Virus record (IMG/VR): IMGVR_UViG_2799112923_000002
Location: 64,001 to 128,000 of that record
Reading direction: 5' to 3' (one strand)
Length of the DNA stretch: 64,000 nt
Origin: a virus
Taxonomy: Duplodnaviria; Heunggongvirae; Uroviricota; Caudoviricetes
Within the stretch, counting starts at the first letter, position 1. Each line of letters opens with the position of its first letter. The translations under genes were made by a program, and so were the position numbers. Below, piece by piece: positions 32,412-60,735 of this stretch. The notes below the pieces were generated by a model. That model searched no databases. It was not told the DNA's origin and saw only the letters and a program-made list of their open reading frames with translations.

Positions 32412-35400
32412 TTAACAGTCGTAATAAATTCCATTTTTCTTATGTTCAAACTCAGATTTAGATGTTACTGTAAGACTTTGTTTAAACGCTCTTTGTTGTG
32501 CTGATTGTTCCAGCTTAGGCATTAATGTATTATAATCGAATTCTCTAGCATAATTACCAAACATTGCTAATATTGCCGTAATATCACTATTTCCTATCTT
32601 TTCAAGTTTAATATCAGGATCAATATTAATTCCAAACATAGAATTAACAGCTGCTCTGATTTTTGCTTGTAAGGATGCATGTGAAAATCTATTTCCATTA
32701 GCAAACACACTAGAATCAATACCTTTCTTAAATGCTTCTGCTAATAAATCAACAAATACTTCCTCTTTAAAATCAGAATTATGAATATCTTTGAATCCAT
32801 GTATTTGTGCTAATTCTTTTAATTTATTTTCTGATAATTCTGAAATAGCAGCATTAATTAACTCATAATAAGAATTCTGTTGTTGAGCTGTACCAAATTT
32901 TAACATTGCACAAACAGCGTGCCCAAGTTCGTGTACTTTTGTAGAAGATTTGTAATTTTGAATATCAGTATTGATATAAATTTTACCACCATAAACAAAA
33001 CCATGAGCACTACATACACGTTTTAGCATATCTTGATTAGATAAATCAATTGGAGCCTTTTGAGGATCATTTTGTCACATTTCTAGGTCTTTATTATTAA
33101 TTTCAATAACAAAATCACCACGAATATTACAAGCGTCATCAATTGCATCCATTGTTTGATTTATGACCTCTCTATCATTTGGCCTTATACGTAATTCAAT
33201 ATTATCCGAAGTAAATCCCATTTCTTTTAAATCATCATCTGAATAAGAGTCATCAATTGAGAATGGCAATTCCATACAGAAATCAGAAGCATCTTTGCAT
33301 CGAACATTTAAAGGTTGTCCTTTAACATTTCCGAATAGATCTGTATATTGCATTCCATATAATCCATTATTTCCAGATAAAGCGGTTACACCTAAACGTC
33401 GTTCTATATTTTCTAATCCAAGCATTCGATATAATAAATCATTCTTTTTTACATCAATTCCAATTTGCTCTCCATCAACATCAATTGTAAAATGTTCTGG
33501 ATTCTCTAAACTTGATAATCTAGACAAACCTTTATCTAGTTTTGCTAATCATGTGTAAAAATCATTAATCTTTGCTTTATCATTATAAACATTCATTATT
33601 TCAAACACTCTTGTAAAACTATCGTGTCCAAATGAATCTTTATACGTATAAAGATTATAAAGATATATAACATCTCCAAGAGTTAACGAACCGTCTGAAA
33701 TACCTAATTTTTTTAAGAATTCTGTATTTTTTGCAATTTCGCCAAAACTTTTCATTACAGCGTTAAATTGATCCTTTGATACAGCTGATTCATCAATTCT
33801 CATCATGTCAATAGGCATACGTTTACGCATACTTAGTTGTTGATGTGTTCTGTTAATCTTTACCGAAGAATCAATCATTCTAACAAATAAGTTGTCTGGT
33901 ATTTCTTTCTTTAATTTTGGAAATACATAATGATCCATTAAATGTTTAAAGGTAGCTAATCCAGATATTGTTCCAAGATCTATTTCTAATCCTTTTACAG
34001 GTGTATAATAAGTATTGATAGATCCACGCTTTACAGGAAGATAAATTAATTGATTCTGTGGTAAAGTAATTTTTAAGTCAGCTTGTTTTAACCAATTTAA
34101 GATTAACGAATCTTTGACGCCATTATGCAATGCCTTAAATTCTTTTGCATTTAATCGTTTGGTATTATCACCATTTAAAATTGTTTTCGCTAATGCAAAA
34201 TCAAGTTTAAATTGTGCACTTCTACCTAAAAGTTTATTCGCAGTTCCATAAAATTTAAACATTTGTGCAAAATTTGGAACTCTAGAAATAATTGCCAATG
34301 GATTCAAACCTTTTTTGATAGCTTCATATTTTGCAATATGATGTTCTCTATAATCCTCATCCTCAATAAACTGAATTATGTCAAAATCAGCATTATCGCC
34401 ATAAGCCTTATTTATAAAGTTTTCAATTCTTAACAATTTATTATAGAAATCAAATTCGTTCGTAGGAATACCTTGATTGACACCAAGTTCCATACCAACA
34501 ATGTTTTGTTCTTCTGTAATAGGTAAAACATTCGCTACAACATTTGCAAATAAATTAAAACTATCTGAATTCTGTTCATATAAATTTGCTCTAGCTTTTA
34601 AAAATTTTCTAGTGTAACGTAACAATGTTCTATTATCTTCTTCAGAACCGGGATTTAATGTTTCAACAGGAATATCAATTGCATCCTCAAAATCATCAAA
34701 GTCTTGTTCTACATCAGAACTATAATCATCATAATCATCAAAATCTTCATACTCTTCGTTATAAGCTCTAGAATTAAATCTTATAAATAACTCATCGTAT
34801 GCTTTATTTGGAAGAAGTGATCTCAAATGAGAGTCAAATATATTAACAGCATCATTTGAAGTAAGCCAATATTTATAATCTTCTTTGTAAGTTTCACTAT
34901 CACTTAATTCTAACTTATCAATATATTTATCATCAACAATTGTTTTTGTAAGAATTCCGTTTATTGGTTTGAAAAAATAAATTGGTGTAGAACGTTTAAT
35001 TAAATCCTCTTTTTTATCAGAACTAGTAATTGGAACTTTCTTTCCGTTTTTAAATGTTAATAAATTACCGTTGTTATCTGTTTCATAACGAAGCTTATAG
35101 AAGAAACAATTATTTAATCCAGTAGAAGGGAAAGCACCAACTGCATATTTTAAAGCTTTTGCATTAATAGAAGGAAGATTTCCATCTAAAGCTATAAAAT
35201 TGATTATATTTTTAGAAGTAACTCCTCTATGAATCTTACTCATTCCAAACGCTTTGCTTAATTTTGCAACAGTGTTGAAATAAGGAGATTGCATAATAGC
35301 TTTTATTTCTTCAAAACTATGTCCAGTCATTAACAACATTCCTCAAATATCAGCAAATTCCGAAGTTGCATTGATTTTTGCAAGAATTAACTCTTTAGCA

Positions 35401-38400
35401 TTGTCTGTAGCAGCAGATAGTAACTCGGATATATTTTGAGCAGCATCTTGTGATTGACTGCGTTTAATTAATCCAAGATCTCTAGCATTATTTCCATTTA
35501 ATAAAGCATTTAAACTGATTTTTCCGTTTACTAAATATTTTGCTATAGCTGGACGTAACCTTTCTTGTTCCACTTTAGATATAGCATACGTAAAAGGAAT
35601 ATAAACATCTTTAATAAGTTTTCCAGTACTATCAAATTTAAGCAATCGTTTTAATGGATCTAAATTAAGATTTGCCATTGTATTAATTTCTGGATTACCA
35701 CTACTATAATCAACAAATAGCGTATTAGCTAAATGTTTAGCAAATTGTGTATCATCTCCATTTTGATATGCTTCAACAGCTGCATCTAATTCGTTATTCA
35801 TGTATGTACTTGCAGCAAAGAAAACTTTCATAGATACAGCAGTAATACCAATAACTGATTTACCAACCATATTTTGAACCTGCATCATAAATTTAACGTA
35901 TGGATTATCCATACTCATTCTCATTTCAACAGGATCTGGATCAACTAAAGCTTTTAAGTCATCAGTACTAATTGGATTATGACCATAAGTTTGAATCGTT
36001 CTTTTATCAAGTAAATTTAATATTCCAGCAAGTACTGAATTTTGTAACGCACCTGTTTTATCTGGAATTTTAATATCAGATTGATATGCTTCTATTTGAT
36101 TTTTAACTTTATAAATAGTGTTTATATCAGTAGAAACATCAAAAGTAAGTGTACGTGGAAGATCTTTTATACTATCGGTATCCCCATCAATTATATTTTG
36201 TATTTGCTCTTCTGTAATATTTGGTTCGTCACCTCTATTATACGTAAAATTAGAATTTTCTTTACCTTGTGTATGTTCGTTTAAAAGTCTCAAAAATTCT
36301 TGACGTTGTTCTGGAGTTACATCTTCTTCAAATCTAATAAATGTACTTCCAGATTCCATTATATCATTAAATATACGAAACGATTTAAAATTATTTGCAG
36401 CTATCACATCTGCTTTAGTAACAACAATTGATGTAGGATTATTAATTCCAAATAAATTTCTTGGACGTTTAATAAGCCCCTCAGATGTTTCAATAACATG
36501 ATTTGTTCTTGTAATTAGATCAATTAATTGATTATTACCAGCATCTCCATCAGAAATAAATTCAGAATTTGGTGGACAATATTCAATAAATGATTTAAAT
36601 AATTTCAAACCTTGCATTCTTCCAAGATTTTCTGAACGATCTGTTATTGTAAATATATTACCCTGTCTAACAAAAGTAACACTTTCATTAGTAAGTCTAT
36701 CATATATTATATATTGAGACTCATCGTTTCAAATTCGTTTCATTAATGACAACGAATCCGTTAAATCGTATGTACCTGGTTCAATTGTATCAATATTGGT
36801 AAAGCCCTCTGTATAGAATTTGCCATTTGGACTATTTAATTCTAAAATAGGACGCATTGATTTTAAATCAGATTCGTTTATTAGTTTTGAAAATTGAGAT
36901 AATGTTCCATCTTTAGCTAACTTATAGCTCATGATATATAATTTGTCAATATCATAATCAGAACCTTGTAATCAAGTTTGAACTTTTGGAACATAAACTT
37001 CATTTTTAAGACTATCTGAAAATCCGACTAATTTCAATCTTTGGAAAGATTGCATGGATTGTGTAGGAATACGAGCACCAACATAATTAAGCTGTTCTTC
37101 AAATGCAAGATATTGTTTATGAGCAAGTTTTTTAACTTTCTTATTATTTTCATTTCGAACATAAGAATTGATTGCAGCTAAAATTTGATCCTGTTGTTCT
37201 TGAGAAAGATTTCCAAAATTATCAATCAAATCTTGTGTTAACTGAATATTATTTCGTCTATCTAAACGTAATGTTATATTTACATTATTTCCAAATAAAC
37301 GATTTGCAATTACATTAATGTTATTTGGAGTAACATTATAATGTACGAAATTAATTCCCTCACCAGAAAGCAATATACTAGCTTCATCTTCAGAATCAAC
37401 TATTATAAATGGACATACTTGCTTTTTATCATTTTGAATAGAAACAACTTTACAATTATTAGAAATTTTATCACAAATTTGATCTTCACGATTATACCAT
37501 AAACCAGTATCTGTATGAGTAAATGATTTATTTTCTGTATGATAAGGAGATAGATCTTTTTTACTATGTTTATCTCTTACAGCTACATATATTGTATGAC
37601 CTGTATTAGTTGTAACAACATAATCATAAACATTTTTAGCAGTAGTTATTGTTTGTTTATCAATTAATTTGTTATAGAAAAAATCATCCCCTTGCTCTTG
37701 AATAGTATTTATATCATCACCTTCTTCTAAACCTAACTCTACTGCATGTAAACGGCCCATAATCATTTCAGCATGTCTCGTGTTAACATTTGTTACAGTA
37801 CAAGTTTTAGTTTTTAAATCTTCAAAATCATTATCACTTAGTAAAGTTCTAATCATTGAAGTTTGTATACCAATCTGATGTGTTGTATCAAGTGCCGCAA
37901 GATCTGATTTTACTTGTAAATTTAAAAGTCTTTGCCATTGATTTAAATCAAAAGGAATTGTTTTTCCATCCCATTCTATACCAGCTCGATATAATGCAAG
38001 TTTTAATGTTTGAATTTTAAATGGATCAGTAATAGTGTAATTGCGAGAAAGTTTTCTCATCTCTTTTACATTTCTTAAATAATGCAATGCTCTCACACTA
38101 TCCAGATCATACATAGAGTAACTTGTAGAATTATCAACGTCTCCATTTGATTTTATTCTTTGGAAAGTAACATCAAGTTGTCTTAAGTTTTTAGGTTTTA
38201 CTGTTCAATTTGAAATTCTGGTGTTTTTTGGAAGTAAATTTCTAACTCTGTCAAAATCATCATAGTTATCAATTTTCACTACTTCTCTTACAGGTTTTCC
38301 ATTATCAAGAAGAGTGTTTCCATTTTCATCTAACGTTTCTATAACAACAGTATCTTCCATATCAGGTTTTATACCTGGGTTATACTCCTGTATAGCACCG

Positions 38401-41400
38401 TATGCCATTGCATAATCAACATCAGATAAAAGTTTTTCAAAATGTTGTTTATTTAACTGAATAGAATCTTCTGGTGATTCATATGGATCGGATGTTCTTG
38501 GATAAAGTTTTGATATTTCTGAAGCTGCTTCATCAAACATCATAGTTTTACCGTTAATTCTGAAAGTTTGAATCATATTATGAGATGGAACAAGAACAGA
38601 CGCAATACCAGAATATTTTCTACGAATACCCTTTTTATTAATAGAAGATACAACATCAGAAATAAATGTTGCATTAATAGTAGGTCCAGAAAAAGGAATT
38701 TCATATTTAATATTTTCATCTTTTAAAGCTTTTGCAGCTTTAATTAAGAATGATTGTGCTAAACCAGTAGTGTTTCTGTTTCCTGTTTCAAATGCAGACA
38801 TTAAGCTTTCTCCAAGAAGTTTATAAACTGTATTTTCATCGTTTTTAGATAAAGCGTTTAACGTTAAACGCATTGATTGTGCAGCAACTTTTCCAATCTC
38901 CTTATAAATTTGATTTACGAGTTTTGTAAAGTGTCCTCCTTGAATTAATGCAGAAATCATTTGTGACATTTCACTAACTTCCGCAAATTCCAATTCATGA
39001 TCTGGATCCATTTGCTTACCAAGATTAATAGTGGAGCAAGTTGAGGTCAAAACGTTGTTATAAAAATCAATTCTACCATCACTTGTTCTAGCAAATGAAT
39101 TGTTAAATAGATCAGATCCATTTACGTTTCTGTTACCATCTTTTGTAGCACTATCGTTTATAATATAAGCAACCAATTTATCCTTCAAATGTTCACCACA
39201 TACAACTTCTGCAAGTGTACTAACATTTCCATCGTAGTATTCAAGTTTACCATCATTGTTTCTCATTGAATATGCACCACCTAAAATTTGATCAATGTCA
39301 TAAAGAGTTCTAATATCTTTTGATACACGCTGTGCATTTCCAATAATTTTTCCAGTATTATCTACTTCTGTTAAAGAATACGTACATTCTGTAATTGTAA
39401 TTACATTTCCGTTTTCATCTAAAATTTGTTTAGGAGAAGTAGAAATATTGTGAACAAGATAATTCTTTTTAGAGAAAGGATCACGTTTATAAATCTTTTC
39501 AGAAGAAGAATTTATATTTCTGCCATAAGAATAATAATTTTCTAATTTAATATATTGATTTAATGGAATAGAAGACATTATTTCATAAGCATGTTCAACT
39601 GAAGCATCAGACATGTAACCCATTCTTCTACGATGATTAGTCAATCCAAATTCAGCTCATTTAAATAGAGTTGGTAATCCAAATTTTGCACTTAAGTCTC
39701 CACAAATAGTTTTATTATCATATGTTACTTTTCCACTTAAAGAGGATCATCCACATAACATTGCAAATACAGGATGTACAAAAGCAGCGCCGTCCATTGA
39801 TTTAAGTTTACTGTCTTGTTCTCCAACCATATTTCATACGGTTCCAGGAATATCATCCACAGCAATATATGTAAATTCAGTACCAATGCCTCTTTCCTGT
39901 GGTGTATATAATTCAATTGAAGCGCCATTAATAACTGTACGTTTATAAGAAGCGGCTAATCTCTTTGCAGCATCATGTACATAGTAATCATTCGATAAAA
40001 CAAGTTCGGATTTTTCAACAGTATTTCCAGATTCATCTATTAATGAATTTCCACGTTTAGTAACAGTTCTTTCGTCAATAGTCTTGTATTTACCATTAAC
40101 TTGTTCAAAATCTCCATTTTCAAAAGTTGGACTATATTTACTATCATGCATTCAATAAAAACCAGTTGTCATTTTATTAAATTCTGTAGATAATAATACG
40201 TCTGCAAGAAAATATGCTTGTAAAAATGGATTAGCTTTGCCATCTTGTTTTAATAATAAATCACCAGTTTTTGTATCAACTCAATTTTTACCAGATTCCG
40301 GCAATTTGCTCATTAATTGTGCAACATTAGCATCATCGAATACATTTAATTCAAAACCACCATTTGTTAAATCGTCAATGAAATAGTTTAATTGTTGATT
40401 CATTCTAGATTTGAACAATTTGTCGGATTCACCACAATATAAACGAAGTTCATCTAAAAATGAATTATTAAATCCGCCTTTTGTAGCAAAATGAACATTA
40501 TTTACTCATTCTATGCCGGTTTCTTTAAATAATTGTTTTATTTCAGATAGCTTATGTGTATTTACATATCTAGCAATATCTTCTATCGCTTCTAATGTAG
40601 TCATATCACCGTAACTCGTACCAAGTACAATTTCATAATCTCTAATAAGATTAGAGGCAATGTTTAAGTATTCACCTCTTCTACAATCATATAGAGTGTT
40701 TAAGATCATGCTTCTATAAGTACCATTAACATCTCCAGAAATAATTTCTTTTAATGCTGTTTCTAAAGTTACATCTTTGCTATTTTGTCGTCCAACAATT
40801 ATATCTTTTCCATATGGGATTACTCAGTGGGTGCCTTTATCAGAATTAGTTGTATTTTGAAAAAGAATTGAATTATTTTTGCTATCATATAAGCTCTCAT
40901 AAAAGTCGCACATTATTCCAAGATATGTTACTTCATTCTCTGAATAAGAAACTGCTTGTGTATTAGTTCCTGCTATTTGTGCGTCCCTTCTTACATAAGG
41001 TTCTCCAACTTTTAAATAATTAGAATAAACAAAATTAGAAGATAATGCATTTTTTACACCTTTTGTTTTTGCTTCTTTTCCAAGTTTATTACGAATTTTT
41101 TTATAACCATGAATTAAGGATGTAAGACTAAATGCAGGAATAGAATCTCCATTTAAATTTTGTAATGTAACTGTTGTATCGGCTCCATATGCAGCAGCAA
41201 ACATTTCTGCTAAATTTTGCATAGCATCGCCTCTAAATGCATTATGATTTGTATTTAAATATTCTACTCGATCTGCACCAATTTTATTAAATTGAAAACC
41301 TGTATTAGAACCACTTATTGCAAGGAATGTTGTACCTAATGCTTGTGAAAATAAATCAAGTAAATTATTATCAGAAGTATATTGTTGCCAACCATCTGGA

Positions 41401-43040
41401 ATCATTCCAAGTAATTGTTCAATCATTGGTTTTACTCATTGATTTAACCCGTCAACATCGATTGGTTCAAGAAATCTTTCTGAATTTTTACTCCCAATCG
41501 TAACTCCTTCATCTGTATTTGCTCAATAATCAACTTCTGGATAATAAAATTGTACATTAATATGATTATTTGTATCTAATGTCAATCTATATCTACCGTT
41601 AGGATAAATATCAGATACTCCTAATAAAACTTGTCGTCCTTTTATCCGAATGCCATAATTTTCACAAAGTTCTTTAAATCCTTCTGGATTTAAAATTTTA
41701 TTTTCTAATACAGCGTTACGAATTCGATCAAGAATTTTTATTTCCTGTAAACTAATAATATTTTGTTTACCTTCTTGTCCGTGAATAGAACCATCTTTTT
41801 CAAGATACATTAAATATTGCATAGAATCATTTGTTGCAAAATGCTTTCAAATCATTCTTAAAGTATCCTGATCCATTGCTGATTTTAAAACTTCAGATAT
41901 AGTAACGAGTTTATCTATATATTTAGTCTTATAAGGGATAAAATTATTTTCTGATTTAATATGATTAAAAATAAATTCATCTAACTTTTTAGAAAGTGCG
42001 TCTGTATCTAATTCTCTTAAGATTTCTGTTTCACCTGTTGCTAAAAGTCAACTTTTAAATTTAGCCATTAATCCCATAAACGCTCCACTTCCAACAACAG
42101 TTTGATTTTTAACAAATAATTTATTACCTCTTTTTTCAAGTACAGGCATATTATCAAAAATTAATGAAATTATAGAACTGTTTACAATTGAAGCATTTTG
42201 AATTTCGTCTTTTCCTCAATGAGATGGTAAATTATTTGCTGGACCAATATATTGATACATATTTGGACTATAACTTGCAGATTTTTTATATGCATCTATA
42301 GTATCAATAAAGTCTATATCTTTTAAGAATACATCAAAATATTTAAGTGTGACATATGCATCATGTGCATCTTGTTTTTCTTCAGAATCGGTTGTATCAG
42401 AATCATATTTGTGTTCAAATAATGAAAGCGCATTTGTAATCATCTTTGTGAAAGAAGCATCATTTAAACCATAATCAGAATCAATTTCAAAATCTGTATA
42501 AGCTTTAATTTTTTTCAATAAATTTATTTTATAAGAATGTATATTCTTATTTAATAAATTATTTCGATTTGATTCATTTCCAATTAATGGTGATGTTATA
42601 TTTACAATGTTACTTGCATCATTAGTATTGTATTCAATGTGAAATATAGAACTATCAGCAATACTATTTCTAAAAGCTTTGTTGACTCTATCATAACCTC
42701 CAGGATCATTACTTCCAAATTCTAATTTTATATCATTTGTAGTTTTATCAATTTCTGCGTATGGATTATCATTATTGTCATTGAATTCAGAAAGTAACTC
42801 AGATTCCAATTTCCTTCATTGAACAAAAAAGGTTCGTTTATTGAATTTTAAATATTCTTCTAATTTTATTCCAACGGCAGCTTCAAATCTATTTATAAAA
42901 TCATTGACTCTGGCTTTAATCTCAGATGCCGTATTTTCAGATAATTCGCTTAAGACATCTTGCCAATTAGAGCCGCTACGAAAAGAATCCGTAATGGCTC
43001 TAATGGCGTCAGACGTCGATTTAACATTTATACATGCCAT
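32412..43040 (-). CDS. Virion-associated two-barrel RNA polymerase with C-terminal zincin-like domain, 3542 aa
   Basis: Catalytic GARIPTQ...QGSDYDIDK (36942-36965), MDGAAFVHP, SAATDNAKEL, HELGH (about 32918-32932). Single frame with TGA=Trp. Confidence 0.92.
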
Positions 43041-59109: not shown

Positions 59110-59127
59110 GTACTATAATATAAATAA

Positions 59128-59154
59128 CTCGGGACTTGTGTCCCAAATCCCGAG
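59128..59154 (-). terminator. Hairpin or partial terminator between the small gene and the giant-gene operon
   Basis: CTCGGGA/TCCCGAG stem followed on the - strand by TTATTTATT. Confidence 0.55.
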
Positions 59155-59175
59155 TCAAGTTTTCTAAATCTTAAA

Positions 59176-59463
59176 TTATTTTCTAACCATTCTGTAAGAA
59201 GTGATCTTACCACCCTTACCAAAAACAGGTTGTGCTTGTGCGCCTTGTGCTTGTTGAAGAAGTTCTAGGAACATTTGTGCACCTTGTGCTAGCATTGAGC
59301 AATCTTGTGCTTGTAAACCTTGCATAAACATTTCAGCAATTGCCATAAGAGGATCTTGTCCTTCTTGTGCTGGCATTCCACCTTCAACTGGTGCAGCTTC
59401 GACTGGTGCACCTGCTTCTGGAGCCTCTACTGGGCCACCCATTTGTAATTTACGAAGTTTCAT
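59176..59463 (-). CDS. Small low-complexity protein, 95 aa, high-expression codon bias
   Basis: MKLRKLQMGG...PAE-rich...FGKGGKI, directly downstream of the - strand promoter. Confidence 0.8.
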   Translation of the reverse strand: MKLRKLQMGGPVEAPEAGAPVEAAPVEGGMPAQEGQDPLMAIAEMFMQGLQAQDCSMLAQGAQMFLELLQQAQGAQAQPVFGKGGKITSYRMVRK

Positions 59464-59524: not shown

Positions 59525-59556
59525 CAAATATACTAAAAATATTTCAAATAAACAAA
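59525..59556 (-). promoter_or_regulatory. Bacteroidota-type promoter driving the ejection-protein/vRNAP operon
   Basis: On the - strand: TTTG (59556-59553), 20 nt, TATATTTG (59532-59525). Confidence 0.85.
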
Positions 59557-59575: not shown

Positions 59576-59607
59576 TTTGGAATTTTAAAAAATTATACTT
59601 ATATTTG
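59576..59607 (+). promoter_or_regulatory. Divergent Bacteroidota-type promoter on the + strand
   Basis: TTTG (59576-59579), 20 nt, TATATTTG (59600-59607). Confidence 0.8.
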
Positions 59608-59611
59608 TATC

Positions 59612-59724
59612 CAGAACGATTGGAAAAAGAATATGTACGACCGAATTAGGTACTATATTAAAAAGTATTGACCCAACTCAGTTCTATATATGCCCTCTGG
59701 TGTTAAACCAGGGGGCTTTTTGTT
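59612..59724 (+). ncRNA. Candidate about 110-nt small RNA or leader transcript
   Basis: Bounded by a consensus promoter and a + strand terminator; internal AGAAC/GTTCT and AATATGTAC/GTACTATATT pairings. Confidence 0.5.
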
Positions 59725-59727
59725 TTT
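59692..59727 (+). terminator. Rho-independent terminator (+ strand)
   Basis: GCCCTCTGGT/ACCAGGGGGC stem (G-U valid on +) followed by TTTTTGTTTTTC. Confidence 0.8.
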
Positions 59728-60735
59728 CTATACATATTCTGCCGGACGATTGTCTTGTGCCTTTATTTCATTAAACACGTAACGTCCTAATGCTTTATAA
59801 TCTTTATCTAATTGAGATATAGCCGCTTTCTTTGCTTTTCTTAAGATTACTTCCGTACTCTTGCGACTAAATATTCTACAACCAGATTCTATTTCACCTT
59901 GTACTTCTCCATTAGAACCATAAATATATAATTTATTAACCTTTAATTCAGGATGTTGTTTTTCATCAAAATCATCCTCCTCTTCTTCAGGTTCTGCGTC
60001 TGGTTCATCATGTAAAGCAAGATTAGTATAAGTACCTTGTGGTATTTGCTCTGATTGATTTAACTCTATAACCCAGTAAATAGGTTCTGATTCTTCTTTT
60101 ATAAGTTTTTCAGAGAGCGGTTCTCCGTTATGTGCTGAAATAACAACTCCATCTTTATTTATAAAAAGTATTCTTAAAGCAATTGTTGTATCTTTCATTC
60201 AAAATGCTAGATGATTCTGAGGATTATCCGAATAATCAAATATTGCACCTTCATCAGAATCCATATCATCTACATTTTTAAGTCCGGTTTCTTTTTCTTC
60301 TTCTGAATATAGATATAAAAGTTTATATGTTTTATTTCCAATAGTTACTGGAACAATGTCAAGATCTGCTTCAAATTGGCCACCTTCTCCAAAAGTTTTA
60401 ATTCCGTTTTCTGATAGATAATCTTCAATCATTTCAATTATAAGATCAATCCTTCCAGAATTAATTAACTGCATAATATCTCCTCCTGCTCATTTAGATA
60501 GCTCTTCAACAATCTCTGGATGGCTTTGTAAAACATATAATATCTTTTGAATAGGATTACCAACTTGATCGATTACCGAATTAGCAGCAATGTTTTCTAA
60601 ATCGGATTTTTGTAAACCGTCTGACTTGATATCTGCCATAGCAATAGCTGCAGTAGAGCCGCCTTTACTTGAAGGATCTTCTTTTAAATCTTGAAGAAGA
60701 CTTAATAAAATTGCATTTATTGATTTATTATCCAT
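59728..60735 (-). CDS. DUF192-domain fusion protein, 335 aa (TGA=Trp)
   Basis: Three track ORFs in one frame. GLKNVDDMDSDEGAIFDY...AFW(TGA)MKDTTIALRILFINKDGVV fits the DUF192 pattern. Confidence 0.75.

Follow-up and report, generated by a model that had tools for sequence, protein, structure and literature searches.

Gut viromes are dominated by crAss-like phages, and we know of hardly any description of RNA-level control in this group. In bacteria, leader-peptide attenuators of the trp and his type place a short open reading frame before an intrinsic terminator, at a workable distance.

Several described systems bear on the locus reported here. Middle and late genes of crAss-like phages are transcribed by the host polymerase, and late in infection the newly made virion polymerase has to be prevented from transcribing; how this is done has been raised as a question for phage phi14:2 (10.1101/2020.03.07.982082). 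In the same phage, gp66 carries a DFDID motif (10.1101/2020.03.07.982082). Sigma-A promoters of the Bacteroidota follow the consensus -33 TTTG, -7 TAnnTTTG (PMC7366714). An engineered 78-nt core of Bacillus subtilis 6S-1 RNA, consisting of the bubble and short arms, binds sigma-A polymerase, about 10-fold more weakly (PMC8876501). Among small internal loops, the Kt-23 kink-turn pattern comprises a 3-nt bulge followed by G1b-A1n and A2b-(G/U)2n (PMC2790904).

A short transcription unit in a TGA-recoded phage genome

The source virus record is complete at 166,911 bases, and the 64,000-nucleotide stretch analysed here (the window) is part of it. A minus-strand block in the window contains long genes that are read through only when TGA is decoded as Trp, and it encodes the crAss muzzle protein and a DUF192 protein; the TGA recoding of this genome lies in its late genes. 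More than 20 tRNAs are present, one with a UCA anticodon. Compared by size, recoding and tRNA content with the Zeta group (PMC7886860; PMC12386605), the virus is probably a TGA-recoded crAss-like phage of that group.

Outside the window, the UCA-anticodon tRNA (G000:C1:59870-59962) is 93 nt long, and its long variable arm gives it a Ser/Sec-like shape, even though Trp is the residue with which TGA aligns in the proteins. Its counterparts take 94-nt forms in G003 and G169 and 72-77-nt forms in G001, G002 and G160, and none was detected in the code-4 genomes G161, G162, G166 and G168. A CUA-anticodon tRNA also lies outside the window (G000:C1:41394-41466), yet TAG is a stop codon in this genome; the same pair of suppressors has been reported for phage Lera (PMC12386605). 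A search of five genomes for a release-factor gene found none.

Next to the DUF192 gene, a preliminary description of this DNA had noted a plus-strand promoter, an ATG, an in-frame TGA and a terminator stem, all of which are present as it placed them (Table 1). The -7 box of the small-RNA promoter was kept in 21 of 21 homologues checked, and promoter and terminator were both kept in all 17 aligned homologues. We infer that the RNA begins at 59613, 5 nt past the -7 box, where the closing stem starts. Because a U tract follows the terminator stem on the plus strand only, the terminator is polar for that strand. The divergent promoter of the virion cargo/RNA-polymerase operon lies 67 nt upstream of the RNA promoter, and the two promoters are always arranged back-to-back. 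In the sequencing runs examined the share of words was small, and the one rumen RNA run gave no contig over the RNA, which says nothing either way on expression.

Table 1. Features of the RNA locus and its surroundings (window coordinates)
Feature	Position	Strand	Details and basis
Small-RNA promoter, Bacteroidota sigma-A type	59576..59607	+	-33 TTTG (59576-59579), -7 box TATATTTG (59600-59607); sequence
Small non-coding RNA gene, ~113 nt (predicted)	59613..59726	+	covariance model match 137 bits, single copy in genome; covariation
Closing stem P1	59613..59685	+	59613-59623 with 59673-59685, two bulges; 8/11 pairs change on both sides in 17 homologues
Central A/U-rich bubble around inner arm	59624..59672	+	59624-59629 opposite 59660-59672
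Inner arm	59630..59659	+	6-bp P2 (59630-59635 with 59654-59659), small internal loop, cap hairpin P3 (59640-59651)
12-codon ORF ending in TGA	59633..59671	+	present, judged incidental: unconserved, chance level 3-4%
Intrinsic terminator	59692..59726	+	10-pair stem 59692-59716; 6/10 pairs covary; P(formed) ~1
Divergent promoter of virion cargo/RNA-polymerase operon	59525..59556	-	-7 box 59532-59525, -33 at 59556-59553
95-aa gene, heads divergent operon, constant neighbour of RNA	59176..59463	-	locus comparison
DUF192 gene, 335 aa in code 4	59728..60735	-	Pfam PF02643; convergent neighbour, replaced in several relatives
3542-aa gene of the same block	32412..43040	-	DYDID motif, resembling the catalytic motif in virion RNA polymerases of crAss phages

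Covariation defines a small RNA family

The consensus fold is a rod in which closing stem P1, an A/U bubble, P2, a small loop and cap hairpin P3 succeed one another, followed by the terminator. Across 17 homologues, in an alignment fitted to the covariance model and with counts that ignore kinship among homologues, 19 of 30 pairs changed on both sides while 98% of cells remained paired, a combination reached by 0 of 500 shuffles; in controls made by sliding this alignment, 32-44% of cells paired. A plain MAFFT alignment of nine homologues gave 8 of 30 pairs changing on both sides, with 97% of cells paired. Over the 17 homologues covarying pairs numbered 3/6 in P2 and 2/3 in P3, and compensatory changes were present in all four helices. 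An invariant G-U pair together with many G-U variants favours a plus-strand RNA over a minus-strand RNA or a DNA hairpin.

Selection appears to have held particular parts of this fold. Helix pairing, the large unpaired A/U bubble, a fixed junction from helix to bubble and a small loop in which C59653 is invariant are kept, and loop sequences vary while loop sizes are constant within each structural type. The structure could in principle be a chance product of an AT-rich intergenic region in which only the promoter and terminator are real, and the rod is indeed only moderately stable by itself (about -8 to -13 kcal/mol), the unconstrained fold of the window sequence departing from the consensus. 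The compensatory changes in every helix, and retention of the fold across deep branches of the phage tree, make such a coincidence very unlikely. The locus is thus, with high confidence, a real non-coding RNA gene. The fallback suggestion of the preliminary description, a structured small RNA of about 110 nt, is strongly supported by the covariation together with the RNA's own promoter and own terminator.

The RNA was single-copy in each genome searched, and scanning of genomes for its core motif turned up no further conserved element of this kind. In one relative the model gave a weak second match of 26-28 bits (L338:1501-1631, minus strand; G002:128317-128447), apparently driven by a terminator and an outer stem. 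Rfam scans, taking matches up to E 10, returned only terminator-driven hits below gathering scores and no 6S family; a match to the L10 leader was set aside, as it skips the structured part of that model. The covariance model found no homologue in 151 Bacteroidales genomes, with one weak terminator-driven match, and blastn against annotated phages found none either. Loose 16-mer and gapped pattern scans yielded mostly chance matches and no true homologue among the genome-contig loci examined; among the transcript-scan matches, L312 was a false positive. Literature searches, which did not extend to the motif lists of a catalogue of viral structured RNAs that may include it (PMC10690425), retrieved no description of this RNA. 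With no matching Rfam family, it is a new structured small RNA family, carried by many large crAss-like phages of the gut and rumen.

The TGA-ending frame is judged to be incidental

The preliminary description had proposed that the unit is a leader-peptide attenuator reporting on TGA decoding, in which read-through of the TGA lets the ribosome disrupt the terminator and so switches on antisense transcription into the DUF192 gene. The geometry it relied on is accurate: 12 codons run from the ATG to the TGA, the terminator stem lies 20 nt further on, and with TGA read as Trp the frame continues to TAA 59780-59782 for 49 aa. The spacing of these elements is plausible for such a device, and both the TGA recoding of the genome and its UCA-anticodon tRNA would fit the proposal.

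Comparison of relatives tells against this proposal, since the start codon, the frame and the TGA all vary among them, the very outcome that the preliminary description had named as refuting it. Among the 17 homologues the triplet aligned to the TGA is TGA in 5, TAA in 2 and TTA in 10, while the start triplet is ATG, GTG or GCG in the first nine homologues and others beyond, and covaries with its pairing partner in P2. AUG frames across the homologous transcripts span 1-30 codons or are missing. An AUG frame of at least 8 codons that ends at a TGA before the terminator is present in only 3 of the 32 distinct homologous transcripts; in two of these, from close relatives, a different AUG lies in frame with the same TGA and the encoded peptide is unrelated. 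By chance, an ATG frame of at least 8 codons ending at TGA arises in 2.8% of antisense 79-nt windows and in 3.8% of transcript shuffles.

RNA folding points the same way. The AUG is buried in the covarying helix P2, where it is paired with P ~0.9, and the TGA (59669-59671) sits in the 3' strand of the central bubble. The calculated probability of terminator formation is 0.98 or higher in all 17 homologues, and it is unchanged when the upstream RNA is masked as by a ribosome, a calculation by folding alone that cannot address direct disruption by the ribosome; a search for a conserved antiterminator by folding these homologues found none. The gene that the antisense transcription would oppose, DUF192 here, is often another gene in relatives. 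Many code-4 phages lack the unit, and its losses within these lineages speak against a TGA sensor, as does a similar unit in the standard-code locus L362. Reading the unit as an attenuator is consequently extremely improbable, and we judge the leader frame, from these comparisons, to be a chance frame inside the RNA gene. This result removes a tempting but wrong account of how recoded phages time TGA read-through. A cis-antisense RNA to DUF192 was also rejected, as the transcript ends at 59726, the gene ends at 59728 and the convergent gene varies.

Three structural types across crAss-like phages

Relatives were gathered through the DUF192 protein, the 95-aa protein and DNA patterns, and their RNAs fell into three types. 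Type A, the rumen form that includes the RNA of this window, has a lopsided bubble of 5-6 by 10-13 nt; type B occupies the same site in human-gut code-4 phages (43 contigs), and type C the same site in L465, L506 and the standard-code L362, types B and C having bubbles of 12-15 by 13-16 nt. The type-A covariance model gives no significant score to types B and C. The register of P2, an unpaired C and the way the helix joins the bubble are common to types A and B. A descriptor of this core, one position of which was relaxed after type B had been seen, yields about 3 chance matches per genome, so that a match at most 30 nt from the same promoter is unlikely to be accidental. Judged by position and this short core, type B appears homologous to type A, a likeness that is unlikely to have arisen by accident; type C may be homologous too, mainly by position and shape, with weaker support than type B.

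In most type B RNAs (L412-L454) a further conserved hairpin, rich in A and U, separates rod and terminator; L521 is without it. In L465, upstream of the small gene, a second promoter-like site and an oppositely oriented sequence follow the type C RNA and fill a 2-kb gap in the virion block.

At this site TAG-recoded relatives, part of the standard-code relatives and about 20 TGA-recoded contigs lack the unit, and genome-wide scans by pattern or descriptor gave no credible copy in G161, G162, G163, G164 and G169. In a midpoint-rooted tree, in which several loci are without the muzzle or DUF192 part and L379 and L382 were taken by coverage as code 15 and code 4, the RNA-bearing phages make up three deep branches. 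This suggests an old element that was lost at least twice, and the existence of whole clades without it implies that the RNA is dispensable. Most carriers are TGA-recoded, but since the carriers are related, their excess is no evidence that the RNA goes with recoding.

Linkage of the RNA to the divergent operon promoter

Even where the convergent gene differs, the RNA remains next to the divergent promoter that serves the virion RNA-polymerase operon. The 3542-aa product of this block gave no profile or PDB match; its motif, size and position would make it the putative virion RNA polymerase. The distance between the two -7 boxes is 58-59, 67-71, 79 or 87-88 nt in most relatives of types A and C, near whole helical turns, and 93-94 nt, out of that phase, in some of type B.

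Fixed linkage of this kind, with spacings in types A and C close to helical-turn steps, would be expected if the unit acted in cis, back-to-back transcription tuning or insulating the operon promoter and the RNA being a by-product. This explanation leaves the covariation of P1-P3 and the invariant loop bases unaccounted for; phages without the unit retain the same operon with a gap of 70-130 nt, and the type B spacings break the phase. We therefore regard a purely local role as quite unlikely.

An insertion hot spot of 1-5 variable genes lies between DUF192 and the RNA terminator in L347, L345, L349, L350, L372, L373, L380, L381 and L364. At its N-terminus the DUF192 protein is extended by about 110 aa (window 60399-60735, minus strand); the extension also occurs in L001, L002, L120 and L139 and is missing from L003, L004 and L137. 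A strong terminator-like hairpin (window 59125-59157, minus strand) between the 95-aa and 1486-aa genes could control how much of the small protein is made relative to the giant cargo proteins.

A proposed role through protein binding

Selection on pairing, on bubble size and on a few junction bases, rather than on a seed, points to protein binding, and a non-coding RNA acting in this way is our main reading, to which we assign a probability of roughly 0.6. Transcription by host sigma-A RNA polymerase would begin near 59613, back-to-back with the divergent operon promoter described above, and would stop constitutively at the terminator, releasing a rod of about 113 nt. The RNA would presumably be transcribed at middle or late times, and the rod would act in trans by its shape, as a ligand of or a decoy for a protein.

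The most serious competitor is a base-pairing RNA that acts in trans, its A/U-rich bubble strands regulating host or phage mRNAs. The layout of promoter, rod and terminator is that of ordinary Bacteroides intergenic small RNAs (PMC7366714), and the bubble offers single strands for pairing. These strands are variable and of low complexity, and it is the structure that is conserved, not a seed, none being found. Among phage start regions, the best duplexes were no better than those of shuffled sequences in three of four genomes, and no orthologous phage target ranked high in all four. Base pairing is accordingly possible and, on this evidence, distinctly less probable than protein binding.

For a protein-binding RNA, we would rank the candidate partners as RNA polymerase first (the host holoenzyme or the new virion enzyme), followed by some other host protein, for example a defence sensor or nuclease, and lastly a phage HTH_17 protein. 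Polymerase is the best-named candidate because the 78-nt 6S core binds sigma-A polymerase and because the RNA stays so constantly beside the promoter of the virion polymerase block. The RNA might then be a natural miniature mimic of an open promoter, with a bubble and short arms, that would be produced at the same time as the virion RNA-polymerase operon and would hold the new virion polymerase inactive until packaging or trap the host holoenzyme. The 5' strand of the type A bubble is short and a -35-like arm is missing, both of which count against a promoter mimic, and trapping the host polymerase would cost the phage, since crAss late genes need that enzyme; we hold this specific version to be doubtful, an outside chance among the possible forms of protein binding.

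A 98-aa HTH_17-like gene (G000:C1:139074-139370, minus strand; L609:3074-3370) occurs in 16 of 20 near-complete RNA-positive genomes and in 0 of 24 RNA-negative records, a co-occurrence that reflects only two or three independent losses, for a gene picked from 192. Some of its copies are truncated, and its product is a weak candidate for the RNA's partner. Two further ideas were set aside. A Y RNA with a Ro60 partner was rejected, there being no TROVE gene in five complete genomes and no Y-RNA match in Rfam, although a control search found a TROVE gene in B. thetaiotaomicron, so that a host Ro60 could still serve. A mimic of a CRISPR repeat was dropped, as divergent members have a different sequence on the 5' side.

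The family offers a compact RNA with covariation support, a defined promoter, lineages in which it was naturally lost and a candidate partner gene. If the RNA does bind RNA polymerase, it would bear on the question of what keeps newly made virion polymerase away from the genome during late infection.

Comparison with known systems

Like the trp and his attenuators, the locus has a short open reading frame and an intrinsic terminator at a workable distance; unlike them, it has no conserved frame or control codon, no antiterminator and no downstream sense gene. It resembles the long intergenic non-coding RNAs of phi14:2, which are likewise non-coding transcripts of a crAss-like phage with no assigned function (10.1101/2020.03.07.982082). 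Those are long, rightward RNAs of the early region, whereas the present RNA is short, lies in the virion block and has a host-type promoter.

Bacteroides intergenic small RNAs such as GibS (PMC7366714) share its layout, with a sigma-A -33/-7 promoter, a structured RNA of about 100 nt and an intrinsic terminator. The present RNA differs from them in being phage-borne, in having no homologue in the 151 Bacteroidales genomes and in showing no conserved seed or target in our searches. The small loop of type A recalls the Kt-23 kink-turn, with a 3-nt bulge followed by G-A and A-U in 14 of 17 homologues; it departs from that pattern in having G at 1n in 3 of 17 and an extra unpaired C opposite the bulge, and in type B a C-G replaces the G-A. 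We treat this as only a resemblance.

There is also a likeness in shape to 6S RNA (RF00013; Bacteroidales-1 RF01693). The phage RNA has no Rfam 6S match and no likeness to the Bacteroidales 6S sequences compared; polymerase binding is a candidate activity. Its core, about 70 nt against the 180-200 nt or so of 6S RNA, has an apical arm of about 9-12 pairs and no -35-like arm. As in 6S RNA, the fold is a rod with a closing stem, a central bubble and an apical arm, and the bubble, lopsided in type A, is in types B and C a large central one between two helices.
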